Made by a program: the position numbers and the translations under genes
Source of the DNA: a virus
Direction: 5' to 3' (one strand)
DNA: 15,109 nt
UHGV virus genome: UHGV-0224297
Notes under the pieces: model-generated
Databases searched by the model: none
Told to the model about the DNA's origin: nothing
What the model saw: only the letters and a program-made list of their open reading frames with translations
Shown here: positions 6,069-14,312 of the stretch, one piece after another
How positions within the stretch are numbered: the first letter of the stretch is position 1
How the letters are laid out: each line of letters opens with the position of its first letter

Positions 6069-6806
6069 TTACGCGGTTTTAATTAACAGCAGATAGTCCT
6101 TCGTAAACTCAGCACAACTCCACCCTCTCATCGTGGCGATTTTACGAAGATCAATTTTCTCGTGATATTTCAATAAGGGATCGTCTGAGTTAATCTCAAC
6201 CAGGTGGGTGGCTTTAGAAATCGTTTCCACATCTGGGATCTGTTTTGCTAAGTCGGATGCAATCAGTTCAATAACGCGGTAACCCTTTAACACAGAAACA
6301 TAGATGCGCAAACCATATAGCGTGCCCTCGTCTTCTAATGGACAAAGATCGATGCCGGGTCCAAGCAGTGATAACTCGACGTTATCGGGAAGGTTTTCTG
6401 CATTTCGGAGTAACCCTATCCCATTTCTAAACAGAGGGAAGTAAGAGAATAGTGGTGGTAAAGCCCAACCGTTCCCAATAAGCACATCATCGATACTAGT
6501 AGGCGTGTTCGCAAGAAGACGAATGTGGTCAGCCACAACTTCAAGTTCGGCATCACTGATCAACTTATAGATTAACATGACACTGGTTTCGGTATTAATA
6601 ACGAAGAAGACGCGGTTGGCGTAACTGCCTATCACGTATTCGTCAATCATACAGTCGATAACGTCACTGTCTGGATAATCTTCAGGTTTAATTGTTCCAG
6701 CATCGATTAACTTAGCAGGTTGCGATTGTTTTAATAGTTCGTTAACAACAGTAGAAGAAAGTTCTAAACTGGTGTTAGTAAAGATATCGTCTAATAATTC
6801 TCTCAT
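6069..6806 (-). CDS. GW-QLLF family protein, divergent member (245 aa)
   Basis: ATG at 6804-6806 with a weak RBS; first gene after the divergent control region. C-terminus RGWSCAEFTKDYLLLIKTA is a degenerate form of the motif. N-terminus MRELLDDIF and internal LLGPGID ... GLRIY match the 3482..4255 product. Confidence 0.7.
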   Translation of the reverse strand: MRELLDDIFTNTSLELSSTVVNELLKQSQPAKLIDAGTIKPEDYPDSDVIDCMIDEYVIGSYANRVFFVINTETSVMLIYKLISDAELEVVADHIRLLANTPTSIDDVLIGNGWALPPLFSYFPLFRNGIGLLRNAENLPDNVELSLLGPGIDLCPLEDEGTLYGLRIYVSVLKGYRVIELIASDLAKQIPDVETISKATHLVEINSDDPLLKYHEKIDLRKIATMRGWSCAEFTKDYLLLIKTA

Positions 6807-6901
6807 GATTTACTCGCTAATCTCAATAAAGGGGAGTCTATTATTATGGATTGCAGAAGAGGAATAAGGAAGTCACTACGTTCCTCTGGGAAGAGTATGT
6901 C

Positions 6902-6918
6902 GGTATACTACGTATACC
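6902..6918. promoter_or_regulatory. inverted repeat GGTATAC-TAC-GTATACC (7-3-7), candidate operator
   Basis: Perfect 7-bp arms with a 3-bp spacer. A third GTATAC lies at 6935-6940 and a GGTATCC at 6963-6969. A TATAAATA (T4 late-promoter-like) reads on the minus strand at 6924-6931. Confidence 0.35.
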
Positions 6919-7107
6919 TCCGCTATTTATATCCGTATACATAATGCCCCCTACCCCCTACCGGTATCCCGAGTAGCAGAATAAAGGGGCAGACTGTAAA
7001 ATTTTAGTACCTGTTATCGGAAGGTACTAAATGGAGTGTAGTCTTTAAGCCGTTTGAGCAGCTCATTGAGACTTTCTTTTTTAGTAGACATGATCTGTCA
7101 CCCCAAA

Positions 7108-7116
7108 TGGTATAAT
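7108..7116 (+). promoter_or_regulatory. candidate sigma70 extended -10 box (TGGTATAAT)
   Basis: Exact TGnTATAAT at 7108-7116 on the plus strand. No good -35 (TAGACA at 7085-7090 is 20 bp away). Would start transcription near 7123, toward the 7225 gene. Confidence 0.4.
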
Positions 7117-7143
7117 CAATCCGTTTCGAATGAAACGTGTCCG

Positions 7144-7172
7144 TAGGGACTGAAGTGCCAGTTCAGTCCCTA
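7144..7172. other. strong stem-loop (11-bp stem, 7-nt loop)
   Basis: TAGGGACTGAA-GTGCCAG-TTCAGTCCCTA. No U-tract on either side, so it is not a canonical terminator. Lies immediately adjacent to element copy 2. Confidence 0.55.
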
Positions 7173-7173
7173 T

Positions 7174-7199
7174 TCACTTAAGTAATATATATCTGAATT
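7174..7199. promoter_or_regulatory. conserved element copy 2 (core TAAGTAATATATATCTGAA)
   Basis: The 19-bp core at 7179-7197 is identical to copy 1. It sits 28 nt upstream of the ATG at 7225, next to the 7144-7172 hairpin, in the divergent control region. Confidence 0.5.
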
Positions 7200-7224
7200 C
7201 AATTCCGATCTAAGGAACGTCCCG

Positions 7225-8190
7225 ATGGAGAAATCCAGTGTTGATTTTTTCTCAATTGGTATCGTCGCGGAAGACAAACCCCGTGGTACAGATCGGGTAA
7301 AAGTGATACCAATTGAAACCAACTTTGCTAACCCTACCGTGGTGCAATCTGTTTCTTCAGCAACTGAAAAGACGCATGAAACATCTGGTGCAACAGATAA
7401 CCTAACCATTAAGACGGGTAACACGATAACAGCAAAGTGGTGGAAGTTTAACTCCAACCGAATTAATTCCCCTGACGTTAAACGAGAAGATTACGTTATC
7501 TTGTTACGTTTGGGGAAAACCGATATTTATTTTTGGATTGATCTGAACTTCGCTAACGTTAAGCGATTAGAGGATGCGGTTTATGCGTGGTCTGCTGATT
7601 CTGAAAACCAGATGGCGGATGACCTGTCCAATGCGTATGTGTTGAATATCTCGACGATTGACAAACATATCACGCTAAGAACAAGTATGGTGAACGGTGA
7701 GAAAGCGGCGTGGTTGTTTCAGTTTGATAATGCAAACGGTACGTGGCAGTGTGTTGACCATAAAGGAAACAAGTATTACATTAACTCGGTTGAAGATGAT
7801 CTCGGGTTTGAGAATGCGATGCTTTCAAAAGTGAACATCAACAAAGAAGATGCGTTCATTTATTCAAAGCGTTCTATTAACCTGGAAACGAAAACAATTA
7901 ATGAAAAATGCGAAGTTCGCAATACGGAAGCAGCGAAATCCGTTACGTTTAAAACGCAAACCTGGTTAACGGAAGCAGGGAGTTCGACAACATTTAAAAC
8001 GCCGAACTTTAAACAAGAAGGGAATGAAGCGATGTTCACCGGTAATCTGGAAATCGCTAAGAACTTCAAATACGGTGGTACGGGCAAAGGCGTCGGTGTC
8101 TTTACGGTTAAAGATGCCGTTATTTCTGGTATTACCTTTAGCGTTCACATTCACCAAGGTAAACATGGCCCGACATCACCTCCGCAATAA
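7225..8190 (+). CDS. putative baseplate central spike protein (321 aa; function tentative)
   Basis: ATG at 7225-7227 with AAGGA RBS (7212-7216). The N-terminal region (GIVAEDKPRGTDRVKV ... KWWKF ... DYVILLRLG) resembles, from memory, the OB-fold of P2 gpV-type spike proteins. The C-terminus VHIHQGKHGPTSPPQ resembles the His-rich metal-binding tip of such spikes. The coding call is firm; the functional call is not. Confidence 0.65.
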   Translation: MEKSSVDFFSIGIVAEDKPRGTDRVKVIPIETNFANPTVVQSVSSATEKTHETSGATDNLTIKTGNTITAKWWKFNSNRINSPDVKREDYVILLRLGKTDIYFWIDLNFANVKRLEDAVYAWSADSENQMADDLSNAYVLNISTIDKHITLRTSMVNGEKAAWLFQFDNANGTWQCVDHKGNKYYINSVEDDLGFENAMLSKVNINKEDAFIYSKRSINLETKTINEKCEVRNTEAAKSVTFKTQTWLTEAGSSTTFKTPNFKQEGNEAMFTGNLEIAKNFKYGGTGKGVGVFTVKDAVISGITFSVHIHQGKHGPTSPPQ

Positions 8191-8308
8191 TTCCCCTTTT
8201 TCTTACGTTGTTTTTATATATTGTGACCTGACGTTGGTAAAACTTTTTATCAACACTTTTCTTAAACCCATCGTTTAGTTAAGCAGGCCACTTTTTTCGC
8301 GCACTCTA

Positions 8309-8340
8309 CTCCTCCCTACGGGGAGGAGCTATCTTATGCT
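8309..8340 (+). terminator. GC-rich stem-loop; weak terminator or 5'-leader structure
   Basis: 8-bp stem CTCCTCCC / GGGAGGAG with a UACG tetraloop (8309-8328). Followed by a moderately U-rich CUAUCUUAUGCUU. Lies 120 nt after the 7225..8190 stop and 70 nt before the DUF1471 start. Confidence 0.35.
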
Positions 8341-8396
8341 TCGGTTGTAACACACGTCGGTCTTAGACCACTAACCTTTTGAAATGGAGAGCTGTT

Positions 8397-8606
8397 ATGT
8401 CTATTAAAGAGTTCTCTTCTGCTGAGCATATTCCAGAAGAGTTTAAGAAAATCGGTAACGTCAGCGCTTTCGGCGATACCGTTGATCATGTAACTGGTAA
8501 ACTGGCTGCTGAAGCCGAAAAAATTGGCGGCGACGCATTCAAAGTTATCGGTATTTCCGGCAACAACAAACTGCACGGTAACGCGATTGTCTACAAAAAA
8601 GACTAA
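8397..8606 (+). CDS. DUF1471 (YdgH/BhsA/McbA-like) domain protein without signal peptide (69 aa)
   Basis: ATG at 8397-8399 with GGAGA RBS (8386-8390). The track start at 8379 is a TTG and an in-frame stop lies at 8364-8366, so no N-terminal extension is possible. The C-terminal FKVIGISGNNKLHGNAIVYKKD resembles enterobacterial BhsA-type proteins as I recall them (ending ...TLHGTAVIYK). No hydrophobic N-terminal segment. Confidence 0.65.
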   Translation: MSIKEFSSAEHIPEEFKKIGNVSAFGDTVDHVTGKLAAEAEKIGGDAFKVIGISGNNKLHGNAIVYKKD

Positions 8607-8609
8607 GCG

Positions 8610-8667
8610 AAAAAAAAAACGTGCTACTCCTACCCTCTTAGAGGGTAGGAGGTTACTTTATTTTTTT
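8610..8667. terminator. bidirectional intrinsic terminator between convergent genes
   Basis: Perfect 11-bp stem CTCCTACCCTC-TTA-GAGGGTAGGAG (8627-8651). Flanked by an A10 run (8610-8619) on one side and a T-rich run (8652-8667) on the other. Sits between the DUF1471 stop (8606) and the minus-strand gene stop (8658). Confidence 0.8.
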
Positions 8668-9920
8668 CGTGCTTTAAAGCGATGCATTTCTAAATACACT
8701 TTTTCCCAGGGACCGAATGGACCAACGATTGCTTGAGCATCGTTAATCTTCTTCTGATTATACCACCGGGCTTCACGAAAGACGTAGTTTTGACTGTCGA
8801 ATTCGGTAGTGTTAAATACCCACTCACCTTCCTCCCACGTAGGCCAATAACCTACCGTCTTACCAAATCGATTATTTAAGTACCCTAATGGTTTTTCAGA
8901 ATCAGGATCGTTGGGGTCCTTGAGGTAACAGCGTCCCCAAACGGCGTTATGCGAAACACCCACAACTTCTTCTTCTAAATACGGATTATCTACCGTAAAG
9001 ATAAAAGAGGATTCGTGGAGTAAAAGCGCCTTCAGTGTTTCAGGGTTACGAATACGTTGAACGTTGGTAGGCGATGATAAATCCCCTACACCGATGCTAT
9101 CCCAGTCGTAATAACGGCGGGTTTCCAGAACGGTCCGTGCAAGATCAAAATTCGGTAAAGAAATCATGATCGCACGGTCAGAGAAATAACCGTCCGGGGG
9201 CAACCAACGTAACAATCCGCCTATGACGAAACCCACGGTTTTCCCCGTAATAGACTCAGGCAGCGATATCATTAACGTGGAGTAATAGTCGCGTGTAGTG
9301 TCGAGCTTGTTTAGCGTAAGGTTGGCGATTGGATAGGTTTTAACATTCCCTAGCTGACCAAAAACCATACAGCCAATATCTGGCGTACATGCTCTCCGTA
9401 CGATTTTACCGGCCCCAGGCAATCGAACACCTACGGTATCCGTCTGGTGTGGTACCCATTGACCGTTAATGTTGTACAGCACACTATTACGGTATTTGTC
9501 TTTCCACTTGTCCTCACAAACGACGACAACGTCATCAGCATCGTCTAAGCTGAAATCTTGACTGTGGTGGTACCCTGGTGGACACAGATATGTTTCGACA
9601 GGTACATCGGCATTAATTGATTGGTAGTGTGCCCAACTGAATTCCAGTTTCGGCAATCCAGCCTTTAGAGTGGGAATGACGTTTCCGGCCTTTTCGTTTA
9701 ACCAATCTTGTAAAGTGTCTGTTCGGTTTTGTAGTTCAGCAAGATGGTATTGACTGACTAACGTATAGTCTTTACCAAGTGCACTTAAACCGATCTCAAA
9801 GGTGTGGTAGTCTGAACACAACGTAGTTAAGGGTTGCGTGACATCGATGGCTCCCCAGGTACGGGACTCTCGAGAGAAGCCAAAAGCGCTGTCGGGCCGC
9901 ACTTGATAAGCAGTAGTCAC
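8658..9920 (-). CDS. hypothetical protein (420 aa), Trp/Tyr-rich, possibly structural or enzymatic
   Basis: Long ORF with GTG start at 9918-9920 and a GAGG box about 10 nt upstream; no in-frame ATG near the start. Stop at 8658-8660 lies inside the bidirectional terminator region. Transcribed opposite to both flanking plus-strand genes. Confidence 0.65.
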   Translation of the reverse strand: MTTAYQVRPDSAFGFSRESRTWGAIDVTQPLTTLCSDYHTFEIGLSALGKDYTLVSQYHLAELQNRTDTLQDWLNEKAGNVIPTLKAGLPKLEFSWAHYQSINADVPVETYLCPPGYHHSQDFSLDDADDVVVVCEDKWKDKYRNSVLYNINGQWVPHQTDTVGVRLPGAGKIVRRACTPDIGCMVFGQLGNVKTYPIANLTLNKLDTTRDYYSTLMISLPESITGKTVGFVIGGLLRWLPPDGYFSDRAIMISLPNFDLARTVLETRRYYDWDSIGVGDLSSPTNVQRIRNPETLKALLLHESSFIFTVDNPYLEEEVVGVSHNAVWGRCYLKDPNDPDSEKPLGYLNNRFGKTVGYWPTWEEGEWVFNTTEFDSQNYVFREARWYNQKKINDAQAIVGPFGPWEKVYLEMHRFKARKK

Positions 9921-9989
9921 AGCTCTTTTTCCTCTATAGATTCAAGTCATAGTATGAACTTCGACGCCCACGGACTATAGGAGTAGATA

Positions 9990-12900
9990 ATGGCTGTCGT
10001 CTTAGACCCACACTTCAAAAAACCGGGGAATAAAATAACCGGTGAAGCGGTCGCCGTCATTGGTACGAAATACCGAATGTTGGTACCTGCCCACGCCCCT
10101 TTTTTCACCACATCCCTGGTGGTCAAGAGCGGCGGCAAAATACTGACCTTAGGCGACGATTACGTTATTACACACCCGTACGAGACTGGTATGTTGCGCA
10201 CAGCCTATCTCATTCACGGGATGATTTGGATTGTTAATGACAAATACAAATCGAATTTTACTGTAGATTACCATGCTGTTGGTTGTGGTGAAGCAACCCA
10301 AGAGCAGATTACCGCAGAGCGCGAGCTTAATAAAGGTAAATACCCCTCCGCGTGTCAGTGGGACACCGTCATCGGAGACGTTTACTTTCCACCGGTCGAT
10401 ATCCAGTTCGATTGGGAGAATTGGAAAGGTGAACTGGAGCTAATGCAGGCCATTGCTGGGGTAGGCGATTCGTTAGGGGAAGTCGTGAGTCGACTTAACC
10501 CAATCGCGCGCAATACACTGGATTTGGAATATCGTGCTAATAGTAAGGTTATCACTTCCGAGCAGTATGCCGCGTACGACAATAAAGGCGGTTTCACCTA
10601 CAACACAGCTCGCCACCGTTATAGCTTGAGTTATAACGCGACAACCTTTAACGACTATTCCCTGTTGGTGAAACACAGAATTCCTGCTATTCTGCCAGAC
10701 ATGACAAAGTTGAATCCGAACGAACAGATCGATTGGATGCTCTGTTATGCCAACGGCGGTGCAAGCATTCTACGGTTACAGCTAAAACAGCGCAAAATCT
10801 CACTGGTCTTAACTGTCGCTATTGGCAGTGGTTCAACAAACTACGATTATACTTTAATCAACGGTTTAACTGACGATGAGTTAAAAAACGATATCGATTT
10901 TAGTGTAACCCGACAACCCGGAAACGGCGTTTACGTAATCGTAGTAAAAACAAATAAACAGACCATGGATTATACATTCAACGTCGATACGCCGCCTGAT
11001 GAGTTCTCGGCAGGGTATTCGAAAACGGATGTAGCCAAATGGTTGAAGTCTAAAACGAACATTAACCTGAACTGGTATGCGGCTGAAAACGATTATATTC
11101 AAATTCGTTCTTTACCCGGTGCGCCGGAGCCTGACGTCGATAACGATGTTTACCAGTTAATAGTTAAGTATCATCAGTTGGTTGAGCAGCTGTATCGTAA
11201 TGCGCCTGCGCACGAACACGTTACACGTAAGGACAACCCACACACAGATACGTGGGGTCCGATCCGTGCGTTGGAGTTGAACGGCATTGCGTCGGATGCA
11301 GCGTTAGCTTACGGGAAAACGAAGCCGCAGTTAACGGATTATGTTAATGCTAAGTATCCAACACAAGCGACGTTGACAGCACAAAAGAAACTATTGCGCA
11401 CGTCAGCTTCGAAAACAGCCGACGGAACCATTGGAACGCTACCCGGTTTTACTTCGTTCACGACAGAAGTTGATCCGGTTTCGATGTCTAAATACGTGAA
11501 CCCTTATTTTAGCGAAAGCTATGTTCGTCAAGGTCACACGTATCATGGCGCGCTTCGTTACACAGGAACGAAGAATGGATTTAGTGCTTCTTTTAATGCG
11601 GTGCCTGCCAACCTGCAAGATATTGACTTTATTGTTACCGGACGTAAAACAGCGTCAGGTAATGAAGCAGTCGGTACGGCTGGTTTACGTTTCTACGAAA
11701 ATCCCGGTAGTAACTCCGGCAAGTACGTAGAAATTATCGGTCAAATCTGGGGAGGTACTCTTACTATCGAACTGGCGTTGCACGGTTACGGGAATCCGGT
11801 ACCGTCAGTTCGGTATATTTCTCAAGCTCCTAATCCGGCAATACCGGATGGGGATTTTACGCTGCGTTTTCAACTGAAGCGTACAGGGAACGTGTTTGAC
11901 GCCGTTATTACCGTAAATGGTAAAACGTATAGCGCTCGGATTAACTTCGATAACATGGACGCTGCGTTAGAAGCATTGGAGAATCGGCATCACTTTAAAT
12001 CGCTGATCAATAATGTTGCCGATGGCGTCACTATTAGTTCGCAAAACAAAGGTAACACGGTTACCATTAAGAAAGCACCTGACGTCGTTGACGAGACACG
12101 TTTAGGTGCCCAGTTTGTCGTTGACCCGAAATCCATTAAGTTCATCGGCCAAGGTTCTACCGATGTTAACGTGGGTAATAACCCGGTAACGTTGCAAGCG
12201 GGCGATAACCAGCTTGTGCTATACCCCGATGACCGTGGATTACTGTGGCGTGGTAAGAAGCTCTTAGACCCCACCACGGTAGCGCCGTATTTGCCGGGCA
12301 ATACTGCAGGCGGAACGGGATTATTCTACGGTGCATCTACAGCTACGGTGGAGCTTACCGGTAGCGGGATTAAAGCATCACCATTCGTGGCAACGTTCAT
12401 TCTTCCGGTTGCCGAAGACGTTACTACGTTAGCGTGTTGGCAGTTAACGGACGAATTCGGTACGGCTGAAAACCTCGCGGCAACCCCTGCGTTAATCGAA
12501 AAACTGGACGCTGAGTTTACCGGTAAATTGGTTGCAGCTAAATCGTACATTAACGACATGCAACTTACCAGCTCAGTTACTATCGACAAAATTACCTTTG
12601 GTTTGGGTAACGTTGCGAATACACCCGATGTCGATTTGCCGATCTCTACAGCACAGCAGGCGGAGTTAGATAAATATTCGCCTAAAGTACACCACCACCC
12701 ATTTACCGCATTTGGTACCGGGAACGCAACCACCGCGAAACGTGGCTTGATTAAATTTGGTCTGGATGTGGACGATGCGACTTTAGCACTCGATGGTAGT
12801 GTGGTAATGGCGCAGACTTCCCAGATTGAAAAATTGGAAAATGCTGTCGGTGGCGTTGACTCGGAGGCACGTCTTGACATTATACGTTTTGGTAAGTCAG

Positions 12901-14312
12901 GTAACGACTTAATTGATGTTACGGTCAAAGACAAAATTCTGGTTACACTTCCAGCCTCAACGTATTATATCGGTGGTGAAACGTACGCCGTGCCGTTGAT
13001 GACGATTAACGTCAGTGAACGTTTTCCGAAATTGAATACGGAAATCTACGCGGGGATTTTTGTTGATATTGTTGACAACAAAGCGAAGTACATCATCCAC
13101 GACAGCTACAGTCAGGCTGAAACGGATACCATGACGCGTGTGGGATTAATCGGCGTCAATGACCTTTCTGAAGTGTTCGTTACAGAGATGCGTAATGTCA
13201 CACGGCTGGACGATTTCCGTGAACTGAAAGATCATGCTGCTGACGATAACGCACATATTCATCGCTCCACGACACGTGCAGTGCTTGGGTTAGCTAACTT
13301 AACAGTAGGTGCGCCCTGCTGGGCTTCTGGACTCCAGGCAGTAGTACGTGGTGAAGCAGACTGGCGTTATGTTGTCGGTGGACAGTATAAAGCCTTAGAC
13401 GGGGTGAAATACGACCAGATCGCATCAAGGTGGATTTTCGATGCGAAAGGGGTAAGTGATAACGTTCACGGGTTTATTCACAACCTATTCCCGACTTTCA
13501 AAAACGCAGGAATGCGGGTAAGTTGGGAAACAGAAAGCAACGCAAAAACCGGAACAGTGTTAGAAACTGTTTTAGGTTGTTGGAAGAACACCGACGGCGA
13601 GCTTATGCGGTTGTCATTACTTATCACTCGCGGTTATCGTTTAACTGACAGTAACGGTGAATATTGTTACGCAGGGTTCGGTTTGAACTTCGGTAACGGG
13701 AAATCGGTAGTGATAGGTTTCACACCAACGAAGCGTGTCACAGCTGCACCGTGGAGTTCATTACAACCCGAAGTATCGTTTACCCACAACCGTGGTGCGG
13801 ATAACGCAATAACGTTTAATGCAAGACTGATCTTAGCGGGGACTGCGTATACTGTTGTTGTGCATTTATCTGCGACGGACAAATACGTAAGCTGTACGGC
13901 GGCAGGAGGAACTACGCAGAAAATCCCATTAGCTGACCGTTTAACAGGGTTCAATATCGAACCTATCGTTAACGATCCGTATACCCCTATTTACTACGGT
14001 TTAGGGGGACTTTATGAGGATGAGGTCCGTGCCGATATCCGTTCTGCGGGAGATAGCGCAACTGCGAATAAAGTCTACGGTACGTTGTTGGACTATATTA
14101 GCAACTATTCCTCATTAAATCGTGTGCGCGTTATGGAATTGACCGGTGTCAGTTCAGACCCCGAAACGCTTAATGCGTTAGTGGCAACTGAATTTAATAA
14201 CAGCCTGGCGGATTACGCTGCGTTACCGGTACCTCCTTATCTTAACAAGGAGCGCGTAATGTCGTTTATCGACACCAACAATAAAGTGCAGGCGGTAATC
14301 ATTCGCGATTAA
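9990..14312 (+). CDS. giant protein (1440 aa), probable virion structural protein (tail fibre or baseplate-associated)
   Basis: Uninterrupted 4.3-kb ORF with ATG at 9990 and AGGAG RBS (9979-9983) 6 nt upstream. Composition is rich in G/T/N/V/D/Y, as in beta-rich fibre proteins. No Walker A motif, polymerase motif or YD repeat was seen. Confidence 0.85.
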   Translation: MAVVLDPHFKKPGNKITGEAVAVIGTKYRMLVPAHAPFFTTSLVVKSGGKILTLGDDYVITHPYETGMLRTAYLIHGMIWIVNDKYKSNFTVDYHAVGCGEATQEQITAERELNKGKYPSACQWDTVIGDVYFPPVDIQFDWENWKGELELMQAIAGVGDSLGEVVSRLNPIARNTLDLEYRANSKVITSEQYAAYDNKGGFTYNTARHRYSLSYNATTFNDYSLLVKHRIPAILPDMTKLNPNEQIDWMLCYANGGASILRLQLKQRKISLVLTVAIGSGSTNYDYTLINGLTDDELKNDIDFSVTRQPGNGVYVIVVKTNKQTMDYTFNVDTPPDEFSAGYSKTDVAKWLKSKTNINLNWYAAENDYIQIRSLPGAPEPDVDNDVYQLIVKYHQLVEQLYRNAPAHEHVTRKDNPHTDTWGPIRALELNGIASDAALAYGKTKPQLTDYVNAKYPTQATLTAQKKLLRTSASKTADGTIGTLPGFTSFTTEVDPVSMSKYVNPYFSESYVRQGHTYHGALRYTGTKNGFSASFNAVPANLQDIDFIVTGRKTASGNEAVGTAGLRFYENPGSNSGKYVEIIGQIWGGTLTIELALHGYGNPVPSVRYISQAPNPAIPDGDFTLRFQLKRTGNVFDAVITVNGKTYSARINFDNMDAALEALENRHHFKSLINNVADGVTISSQNKGNTVTIKKAPDVVDETRLGAQFVVDPKSIKFIGQGSTDVNVGNNPVTLQAGDNQLVLYPDDRGLLWRGKKLLDPTTVAPYLPGNTAGGTGLFYGASTATVELTGSGIKASPFVATFILPVAEDVTTLACWQLTDEFGTAENLAATPALIEKLDAEFTGKLVAAKSYINDMQLTSSVTIDKITFGLGNVANTPDVDLPISTAQQAELDKYSPKVHHHPFTAFGTGNATTAKRGLIKFGLDVDDATLALDGSVVMAQTSQIEKLENAVGGVDSEARLDIIRFGKSGNDLIDVTVKDKILVTLPASTYYIGGETYAVPLMTINVSERFPKLNTEIYAGIFVDIVDNKAKYIIHDSYSQAETDTMTRVGLIGVNDLSEVFVTEMRNVTRLDDFRELKDHAADDNAHIHRSTTRAVLGLANLTVGAPCWASGLQAVVRGEADWRYVVGGQYKALDGVKYDQIASRWIFDAKGVSDNVHGFIHNLFPTFKNAGMRVSWETESNAKTGTVLETVLGCWKNTDGELMRLSLLITRGYRLTDSNGEYCYAGFGLNFGNGKSVVIGFTPTKRVTAAPWSSLQPEVSFTHNRGADNAITFNARLILAGTAYTVVVHLSATDKYVSCTAAGGTTQKIPLADRLTGFNIEPIVNDPYTPIYYGLGGLYEDEVRADIRSAGDSATANKVYGTLLDYISNYSSLNRVRVMELTGVSSDPETLNALVATEFNNSLADYAALPVPPYLNKERVMSFIDTNNKVQAVIIRD

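Follow-up and report, generated by a model that had tools for sequence, protein, structure and literature searches.

A DUF1471 domain protein without a signal peptide, orthologous to SPN3US gp172, encoded between tail genes of an uncultivated jumbo phage

In E. coli and Salmonella, few small envelope proteins are induced by stress as strongly as those of the DUF1471 family. The family is restricted to Enterobacterales (PMC4092069; PMC11705850), and most of its members carry an N-terminal Sec signal and are located in the periplasm or outer membrane (PMC4092069). A phage protein annotated with the same domain, gp172 of SPN3US (SPN3US_0172, YP_009153466.1; PHROG 8068), has been seen by mass spectrometry and never studied. 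Here we report a computational analysis of its counterpart in an uncultivated jumbo phage of ∼225 kb, UHGV-0224297, of which a stretch of 15,109 nt (the window) was analysed. Sequence comparison gives good support to orthology between gp172 and the 69-aa product of the open reading frame (ORF) at 8397-8606 in the window. Our best overall explanation, which we rate a little short of an even chance, is that this gp172 ortholog is a host-derived domain stripped of its signal peptide, made late and abundantly, with an accessory role connected to tail assembly. The sequence-only reading that preceded this work had implied that the find was new, which overstated the case: in RefSeq the SPN3US ortholog already bears the name “DUF1471 domain-containing protein”, and several Erwinia phage records read “BhsA”. 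In our literature searches no paper took up the absence of the signal peptide or a function of the gp172 family, and none linked DUF1471 or BhsA to jumbo phages.

With gp172 and the other members of PHROG 8068 the window protein shares a length in the range of 66-73 aa, the absence of a signal peptide, the synteny with gp173-like and gp171-like genes and a terminator-TATG-terminator layout, although it is 45% identical to gp172 itself as against 72-80% to the allele of SPAsTU, Erskinevirus and Machinavirus. With the single-domain DUF1471 proteins of the host (BhsA/YcfR, YbiJ, McbA/YbiM, YhcN, YahO and SrfN) it has in common the PF07338 domain, the predicted fold, the C-terminal motif and the size of the mature protein, but it has no Sec signal, would not be periplasmic, has an N-terminus of its own and scores below the equivalog cut-offs; it is also the product of a virulent jumbo-phage gene, with a phage-type promoter motif where the host genes have stress-regulated promoters. 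The best structural superposition is with RcsF, the outer-membrane lipoprotein and sensor of the Rcs envelope-stress system (2Y1B; query-normalised template modelling (TM) score 0.85, root mean square deviation 1.9 Å), and similarity between the DUF1471 and RcsF folds is already documented (PMC4092069). The two proteins are only 12% identical, however, and the phage protein has neither cysteines nor a lipobox nor a signal peptide, whereas RcsF needs disulfides. Like the morons of lambdoid-type phages, the gene is bounded by terminator hairpins, has a promoter-like motif of its own, lies between conserved genes and is missing from that junction in distant relatives; unlike them, it has a neighbour-like composition, is fixed across five genera, is preceded by a phage RNA-polymerase-type motif instead of a sigma-70 promoter, and has no prophage expression.

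DUF1471 identity and the absent signal peptide

The 69-aa product (MSIKEFSSAEHIPEEFKKIGNVSAFGDTVDHVTGKLAAEAEKIGGDAFKVIGISGNNKLHGNAIVYKKD*; 7.4 kDa, no Cys), read from the + strand, matches the Pfam family PF07338 (YdgH_BhsA-like) with 38.2 bits (E 1.4e-9) against a gathering cut-off of 27 bits, residues 17-67 aligning with profile positions 2-55 of 55, and the orthologs from SPN3US, Kwan and CR5 pass the same model. PHROG 8068 is matched over its whole length (E 4.5e-32, 111 bits), with all 69 residues aligned to profile positions 1-70 of 70, and a profile built from the phage proteins picks up two solved structures of YahO, 2MA4 and 2NOC (E 1.6e-6). The AlphaFold2 (AF2) model, with a predicted local distance difference test (pLDDT) score of 89.4, has strands at residues 4-6, 16-26, 47-54 and 59-68 and a helix at 29-42. 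Its best Foldseek neighbours in the PDB are 4EVU, 2M2J, 2MA8, 2JNA and 2NOC (TM 0.73-0.78), the solved DUF1471 domains of YdgH/SssB, STM1478, SrfN and YahO, and the protein is predicted to adopt the mixed alpha+beta DUF1471 fold of a small first strand, a helix and a three-stranded sheet. The fold search also returns Se-binding protein and dodecins, which are small ligand binders, and a search of the viral fold collection BFVD returned just orthologs and paralogs from the protein's own family and no characterised viral protein. A DUF1471 domain was what the sequence-only reading had proposed, in part from a likeness to the C-terminus TLHGTAVIYK; the Pfam match and the fold prediction bear out the domain, and this ending is indeed that of BhsA-type proteins (P0056, P0058).

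Among the NCBIfam models that of BhsA (NF047859) is the closest, with 46.8 bits over model positions 30-85 of 85, but its BhsA/YcfR equivalog cut-off lies at 90 bits and every NCBIfam equivalog cut-off is missed by the 69-aa protein. On these scores we rejected the name “BhsA”, given in several Erwinia phage records, as an over-annotation. The nearest bacterial proteins are BhsA/YbiJ-like, and most of them likewise fall under the BhsA equivalog cut-off; identity to BhsA-like proteins is 38-49% across the domain, the C-terminal motif G-N-N-k-l-H-G-x-A-I-v-Y-K is present, and a conserved phage-specific N-terminus (MSIKEF.S.E.IP) stands in place of the signal peptide. Judged by sequence and predicted fold, the ORF is a member of Pfam DUF1471 yet not a BhsA equivalog, a class marked in bacteria by stress, copper and biofilm phenotypes and by association with the outer membrane.

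The family hallmark of a Sec signal with periplasmic or outer-membrane location is absent from the 69-aa protein. In a BLASTP alignment with a true BhsA (P0027, 125 bits to the BhsA model), residue 13 of the window protein pairs with BhsA residue 30, and the phage protein therefore corresponds to the mature protein plus a few residues. The maximum 10-residue hydropathy in the first 30 aa is 0.4 for the window protein and at most 1.3 for the phage type, compared with 2.0-3.1 for full-length bacterial homologs. When 1.84 billion representative proteins were searched exhaustively by HMMER with the phage-protein profile, 91 matches were obtained, the top four being proteins of 68-78 aa that open directly with the domain and have no signal peptide, and those from rank five onward bacterial proteins of ∼84 aa with classical signal peptides; a word-indexed homolog search gave only 7 close phage-type proteins, the bacterial homologs being reached by the exhaustive profile search. 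When true BhsA was compared by tblastn with 50,697 phage records, the phage matches were confined to this jumbo clade and began at BhsA residue 26-31 (30-31 in all but one record), two other records in that search being Salmonella contigs misfiled in the collection. On these comparisons every phage copy is without a signal peptide, and the product is expected to stay cytoplasmic because it has no export signal. The earlier claim that the signal peptide is lacking is upheld by the model match that starts at position 30 of 85, the hydropathy of 0.4, the stops upstream and the agreement of six assemblies. Elsewhere in the window, five consecutive small ORFs on the - strand between 558 and 2760 (558-947, 958-1368, 1380-1865, 1884-2276 and 2299-2760; 129-161 aa) each begin with a signal peptide of classical type, two instances being MKTIINTLLIAIAILFSVNVSA and MKFFTSLLTILLTLGLNTAHA; four of the ORFs were scanned (all except 1884-2276), of which two match PHROGs of unknown function and none matches Pfam. 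The phage, by the look of these sequences, exports several small proteins, so a DUF1471 protein without a signal stands out.

The sequence upstream of the ORF offers no alternative N-terminus. An in-frame TAG lies at 8364-8366, as had been pointed out before this analysis, and bars an extension; the other two frames of the 206-nt spacer 5′ of the ORF are also closed by stops, and no signal-peptide-like ORF or hydrophobic leader was found in any of the three. A TTG at 8379 was considered as the start and rejected in favour of the ATG at 8397, because it has no ribosome-binding site and would add just LKWRAV; the orthologs start at the same residues. A sequencing frameshift hiding a signal peptide was looked for and is excluded, since six independent metagenome assemblies carry the same 69-aa protein and the same upstream TAG. 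Among the orthologs, gp168 of Erwinia phage Derbicus (L018 3790-4032) is annotated from a GTG start as a protein of 80 aa with 12 additional residues (VSCRSPTTEDDV) unseen in the others; this start is probably miscalled, and an internal ATG would restore the usual 68 aa.

Substitution patterns indicate that the ORF is clearly under purifying selection. Between the window and strain variants the nonsynonymous rate (pN) is 0 while the synonymous rate (pS) is 0.33 (L005) or 0.13 (L007), and comparisons across genera give omega values of about 0.05-0.6. All six strain variants encode the identical protein (100%), and their flanking tail proteins are 94-99.8% identical. We dropped the statement that it is more conserved than its neighbours: 15 synonymous differences accompanied by 0 amino-acid changes, against ∼1.8 expected by our own estimate from the ratio in the gp171-like gene, is not a significant departure.

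Orthologs, transcription unit and origin

A tblastn search found the gene in 52 phage records, one copy per genome, in alignments that cover at least 93% of the protein with 40-80% identity, and the hosts of all 52 are Salmonella, Erwinia, Escherichia, Cronobacter or Proteus. Together with the restriction of DUF1471 itself to Enterobacterales, this makes the enterobacterial host proposed in the sequence-only reading a sensible inference. The gene order (baseplate gene, DUF1471 gene, convergent gp171-like gene, gp170-like gene) is the same in nine annotated loci and was found in at least five genera, namely Seoulvirus, Erskinevirus, Machinavirus, Wellingtonvirus and Derbicusvirus. Of the neighbours (Table 1), SPN3US gp173 has been classed as a tail protein (PMC10052503 Table S2), and gp171 is essential, tail/baseplate-associated and homologous to phiKZ ORF130 (PMC5105663). 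Between the homologous convergent gp171 and gp173 genes of E. coli phage Goslar and Vibrio phage pVp-JHP1101, the next relatives in which both homologs can still be recognised, there is no gp172-type ORF.

Two divergent alleles are present within Seoulvirus (L001, L002 and L013 compared with the window). The SPAsTU allele is of the KKIGNV...HG.AIVYK type and 80% identical to the window protein, that of SPN3US and pEa_SNUABM_29 is of the VEAGTVQVSG...FGNAIYYVNA type and 45% identical to it, and the adjacent gp171 is 76-80% identical in all these phages, which suggests allele exchange or accelerated divergence. In Wellingtonvirus, a second signal-less DUF1471 gene lies directly downstream (Erwinia phage Kwan gp190, L011 2787-3347, Pfam 29.7 bits; also in Wellington), its domain fused to an acidic low-complexity C-terminal tail of ∼120 aa; this second copy has the appearance of a tandem duplication that acquired a tail.

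Table 1. Features of the gp172-like locus and its neighbours, in window coordinates
Feature	Position	Strand	Basis and details
Coding sequence, 69-aa DUF1471 (YdgH/BhsA/McbA-like) protein without signal peptide, SPN3US gp172 ortholog	8397..8606	+	Pfam, PHROG, AF2, pN/pS, synteny
GC-rich stem-loop CTCCTCCC-TACG-GGGAGGAG	8309..8328	+	Terminator scan; 8 bp, 6 G-C; 7 nt upstream of TATG
TATG, putative phage (non-virion RNA polymerase) middle/late promoter core	8335..8338	+	Conservation; phiKZ analogy
Small leader hairpin GGTC-TTA-GACC	8359..8369	+	Read from sequence; loop holds TAG 8364-8366
Shine-Dalgarno GGAG	8386..8389	+	7 nt before ATG; GGAG/GAGG kept in 9/9 loci aligned
Bidirectional intrinsic terminator	8610..8667	both	A10 run 8610-8619, hairpin 8627-8651, T-rich run ∼8657-8667
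Baseplate assembly protein, SPN3US gp173 ortholog, upstream neighbour	7225..8190	+	phrog_3216, E 1.7e-112
SPN3US gp171 ortholog, convergent downstream neighbour	8658..9920	-	phrog_3337, E 3.2e-144; 76% identity to gp171
gp170 counterpart, baseplate/tail-fibre paralog family	9990..14312	+	Divergent from the gp171-like gene

The gene had been described as standing alone between a stem-loop and a bidirectional terminator, and both hairpins were confirmed by the terminator scan and by folding. The 51-nt stretch around the first (8295-8345) folds at -18.1 kcal/mol (z -2.5), and the hairpin is terminator-like for the upstream baseplate gene; most of eight relatives have a hairpin at the equivalent place with a clear T run (clearest in Stratton, Kwan, pEa29, pEa4 and Huxley), and the strain variant L005 keeps the stem with the loop changed from TACG to TTCG. 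The second hairpin, CTCCTACCCTC-TTA-GAGGGTAGGAG (11-12 bp; z -5.7 and -5.9 on the two strands), belongs to a terminator common to the ORF and the convergent gp171-like gene, and a strong GC hairpin lies between the convergent stop codons in all nine loci compared. A pattern CTCCTNCC...GGNAGGAG is common to both hairpins and occurs nowhere else in the window, with 0 occurrences expected by chance.

When the upstream spacers of nine phages from five genera (206-310 nt) were aligned, a single 4-mer block proved invariant, namely TATG, usually as TATGC, located 45-69 nt 5′ of the ATG. The late promoters of phiKZ have the consensus 5′-TATG-3′ with the G as start site (PMC4666361), by analogy with which transcription is predicted to start at G8338 and give a leader of ∼58 nt. 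The context in the window reads TCTTATGC and does not fit the pattern TWNTATGC. The putative class is given as middle/late because TATG resembles the phiKZ late promoter and TTTAC, present in relatives, the phiKZ middle element; a sigma-70 promoter scan found no site upstream of the ORF. TATG also occurs 31 and 37 nt upstream of the two neighbouring tail genes that diverge from each other, gp171-like and gp170-like. These two copies lie one per strand in a palindrome (TCATAGTATGA, 9947-9957) within the 69 nt that separate the genes, as if to form back-to-back overlapping promoters. The small leader hairpin of the window has a counterpart of different sequence (AGAC-ATAGG-GTCT) in relatives, and a conserved GCCACTTTTTTCGC-like box lies at 8287-8300, just before the first stem-loop, in the nine-phage alignment. 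A second promoter-like motif follows the baseplate stop (TTAC 8203-8206, N15, TTGTGAC 8222-8228; TATGAC or TGTGAC in relatives), and the spacer at 8191-8308 could give a short non-coding transcript of ∼100 nt; an Rfam scan of 6700-10100 returned nothing relevant. The gene would thus form its own transcription unit, composed of terminator hairpin, TATG, leader of ∼58 nt with a hairpin, GGAG, ORF and bidirectional terminator.

As to origin, it appears most likely that the ancestor of the SPN3US-like jumbo phages took the gene once, long ago, from an enterobacterial host, and that it has descended vertically since; the hosts of the 52 records are consistent with such a capture. The GC content of the ORF is 42.9% and that at third codon positions (GC3) 44.3%, against 41.9-45.9% and 43.5-47.5% for the neighbours. 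The earlier description of the gene as an acquired moron holds as far as the promoter-ORF-terminator architecture and the absence from outgroups are concerned, and fails where it implies an acquisition that is recent or sporadic, given the presence at the same site in five genera, the neighbour-like GC and GC3, the purifying selection, the phage-type TATG and the virulence of these phages; because they are virulent, the logic of a moron that benefits a lysogen does not apply to them.

The nearest sequenced relatives of the source phage are SPN3US-like phages of Salmonella, Erwinia and E. coli, to which the tail-gene region shows ∼73-75% nucleotide identity (over about half of a 3-kb query). 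The identical 69-aa protein is indexed in 876 assembly-collection blocks, often on contigs >200 kb, and this uncultivated jumbo phage is therefore common in sequenced samples and appears widespread. Many of these contigs are near-complete at ∼225 kb and come from ENA metagenomes and one NCBI assembly (L004-L009 are 223-228 kb).

Proteomics of SPN3US gp172 and competing explanations

All results on how the protein behaves come from the literature on SPN3US gp172, not from the phage of the window. Ali et al. (2017) detected gp172 in virions purified by a single CsCl step as “the smallest SPN3US virion protein”, with 6 spectra, 81% coverage and a spectral count per mass of 0.86, similar to that of portal and baseplate proteins, and left its virion status open. 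Reilly et al. (2020, Table S2) counted 13 gp172 spectra after crude differential centrifugation, 6 and 3 after a single CsCl step, none in any of three doubly purified prohead-plus-tail samples, in which gp171 reached up to 39 and gp173 up to 27, and none in a membrane-rich CsCl band full of host porins; they remarked on an “Unusually high abundance in cell” and applied the label “Tail” from their am27 experiments. A study of 2023 combined dual CsCl purification with an instrument of higher sensitivity and listed 102 phage proteins, the smallest of 10.5 kDa; gp172 is absent from its virion and head lists. We set aside the view of gp172 as a structural protein, which derives from the 2017 detection, on the ground that the signal vanishes with purity in the supplementary tables of 2020 and 2023. 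gp172 is certainly made; it is abundant and soluble, and appears to be neither membrane-bound nor a stable part of heads, tails or virions. The suggestion of the sequence-only reading that the domain would be cytoplasmic is consistent with this literature.

In the explanation that we prefer, a host gene would have been dropped into the convergent terminator junction between two tail genes, and its Sec signal peptide of ∼22 residues swapped for the short phage-specific N-terminus. The protein would be held in the cytoplasm and made in large amounts, at middle or late times alongside the surrounding tail genes, as a soluble non-catalytic binder that is lost from highly purified particles; it would give chaperone-like or scaffold-like help in tail/baseplate morphogenesis, or attach loosely to tails, and would not act as an envelope stress protein. 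That gp172 is an abundant middle/late accessory protein tied to tail/baseplate morphogenesis, or riding loosely on tails, we put forward tentatively, as a possibility appreciably below an even chance. It draws on the tail-gene neighbours, the TATG that these have in common with it, the abundance in cells combined with loss from particles, and the am27 label. A signature of this kind, abundant in cells and lost from particles, is reportedly what led Weintraub in 2019 to propose gp22 as a scaffold.

Several points weigh against a role in tail assembly. The TATG on which the expression class is based is a common tetramer; in addition, TTTAC, which resembles the phiKZ middle-promoter element, lies ∼16 nt upstream of TATG in seven of the nine phages, and the window is without it. 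Goslar and the Vibrio phage keep gp171/gp173-like genes without gp172, and phiKZ, which has a homolog of gp171 at least, also lacks it, so such a helper was not ancestrally needed. A convergent terminator junction is also a permissive site for insertion, and position there need not imply function, while a host-derived gene restricted to Enterobacterales would be more typical of host manipulation than of assembly. The proteomic record is itself divided: gp172 is missing from the gp47 head-protein mutant (Ali et al. 2017), and in the data of Reilly et al. (2020) doubly purified heads, which have no tails, gave 2 spectra and tailed virions purified to the same degree gave none, in contradiction to the label “Tail”.

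The same abundance could serve a purpose directed at the host or its defences, gp172 being a cytoplasmic decoy or sponge that binds an Enterobacterales-specific partner or ligand and blunts the host response or abortive infection; candidates are whatever the host DUF1471 proteins recognise, for example an anionic glycan or precursor, or a small signalling molecule. We consider this unlikely, yet almost as probable as the role in tail assembly. In its favour, the gene is host-derived, the source family and the phage clade are both restricted to Enterobacterales, relatives with homologous tails do without it, and the protein is small and reaches high levels in cells without being a stable part of virions. 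The fold class includes the small ligand binders returned by the fold search, and SrfN binds oxyanions and sulfated polysaccharides (PMC4092069). Yet no cytoplasmic partner is known, the periplasm is where the DUF1471 proteins of the host work, and YdgH fails to complement once deprived of its signal (PMC11705850); moreover, takeover and anti-defence genes are usually early whereas this promoter motif looks middle/late, the PADLOC defence-protein models give no match to the 69-aa protein, and fold searches show no likeness to known sponge families. A bolder version, that a periplasmic host domain has been turned into an abundant cytoplasmic binder of an Enterobacterales-specific ligand or partner and acts as a mimic or sponge during infection, we regard as improbable; its ligand could be a signal of defence or stress, or else whatever DUF1471 domains in general bind, such as an anionic glycan of the envelope or the lipid-linked precursor of one.

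The loss of the signal peptide can also be read from the side of the virion, which assembles in the cytoplasm: gp172 would be a genuine virion protein, salt-labile or in low copy on the tail or baseplate, or packaged and ejected, and would meet the envelope, the compartment of host DUF1471 proteins, from outside at adsorption. The 81% coverage in CsCl-purified SPN3US virions, a mass-normalised count like that of portal and baseplate proteins, the am27 comparison, the position within the tail module and the binding of anionic polysaccharides by SrfN (PMC4092069) are all in line with this, but the count is highest in the crudest sample, drops with purity and reaches 0 in doubly purified tailed virions and purified tail-containing samples, and gp172 is missing among the 102 proteins of 2023 despite the more sensitive instrument; we think this reading quite unlikely. 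Far less probable is a recently acquired BhsA/McbA-like moron that alters the stress or biofilm physiology of the host, even if BhsA is the closest NCBIfam model, the promoter-ORF-terminator layout fits and the gene is absent from outgroups. Its 46.8 bits are far under the 90-bit equivalog cut-off, it has no signal peptide where periplasmic location is required for the one member of the family so examined (PMC11705850), its composition is ameliorated, and it is fixed in five genera of virulent phages, with no lysogen to benefit. The chance that we are dealing with an artefact, be it a spurious ORF or a signal peptide hidden by a frameshift or miscalled start, is negligible: short length is all that speaks for it, whereas seven independent assemblies agree, the upstream stop is kept, stops fill all three frames, pN is 0 against pS of up to 0.33, and peptides covering 81% of the ortholog have been observed.

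Other features of the window and significance

An exact 17-nt repeat, CAGATATATATTACTTA, occurs at 2815-2831 and 7179-7195 on the - strand (2 copies against 0.05 expected), each copy standing at the head of a block of leftward genes. Its AT-rich sequence has the look of a phage promoter and presumably resembles the phiKZ early promoter consensus. The 418-nt spacer at 6807-7224 has no ORF of more than 41 aa and holds a CCCCCTACCCCCTACC direct repeat; at this place SPN3US and most relatives encode a protein of ∼105 aa (gp174), and the strain variants, like the window, have no called gene. No tRNAs were found in the window.

On a practical level, the phage proteins of this family should not be named “multiple stress resistance protein BhsA”, and database names can be corrected accordingly; the gene also provides a clean marker for infection of Enterobacterales by an uncultivated jumbo phage. 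If gp172-type proteins do prove to be cytoplasmic binders or sponges, they would be a new class of phage counter-host factor and would offer the first soluble, signal-free handle on the ligands of DUF1471. For SPN3US amber-mutant genetics is available, which makes the function of gp172 a question that is cheap to address. More generally, a clade of giant phages related to phiKZ that keeps one signal-stripped copy of the domain amounts to a natural experiment, in which the domain is useful in another compartment, and the partner of gp172 would inform both the biology of jumbo phages, whether in tail assembly or in host control, and the function of the host family.

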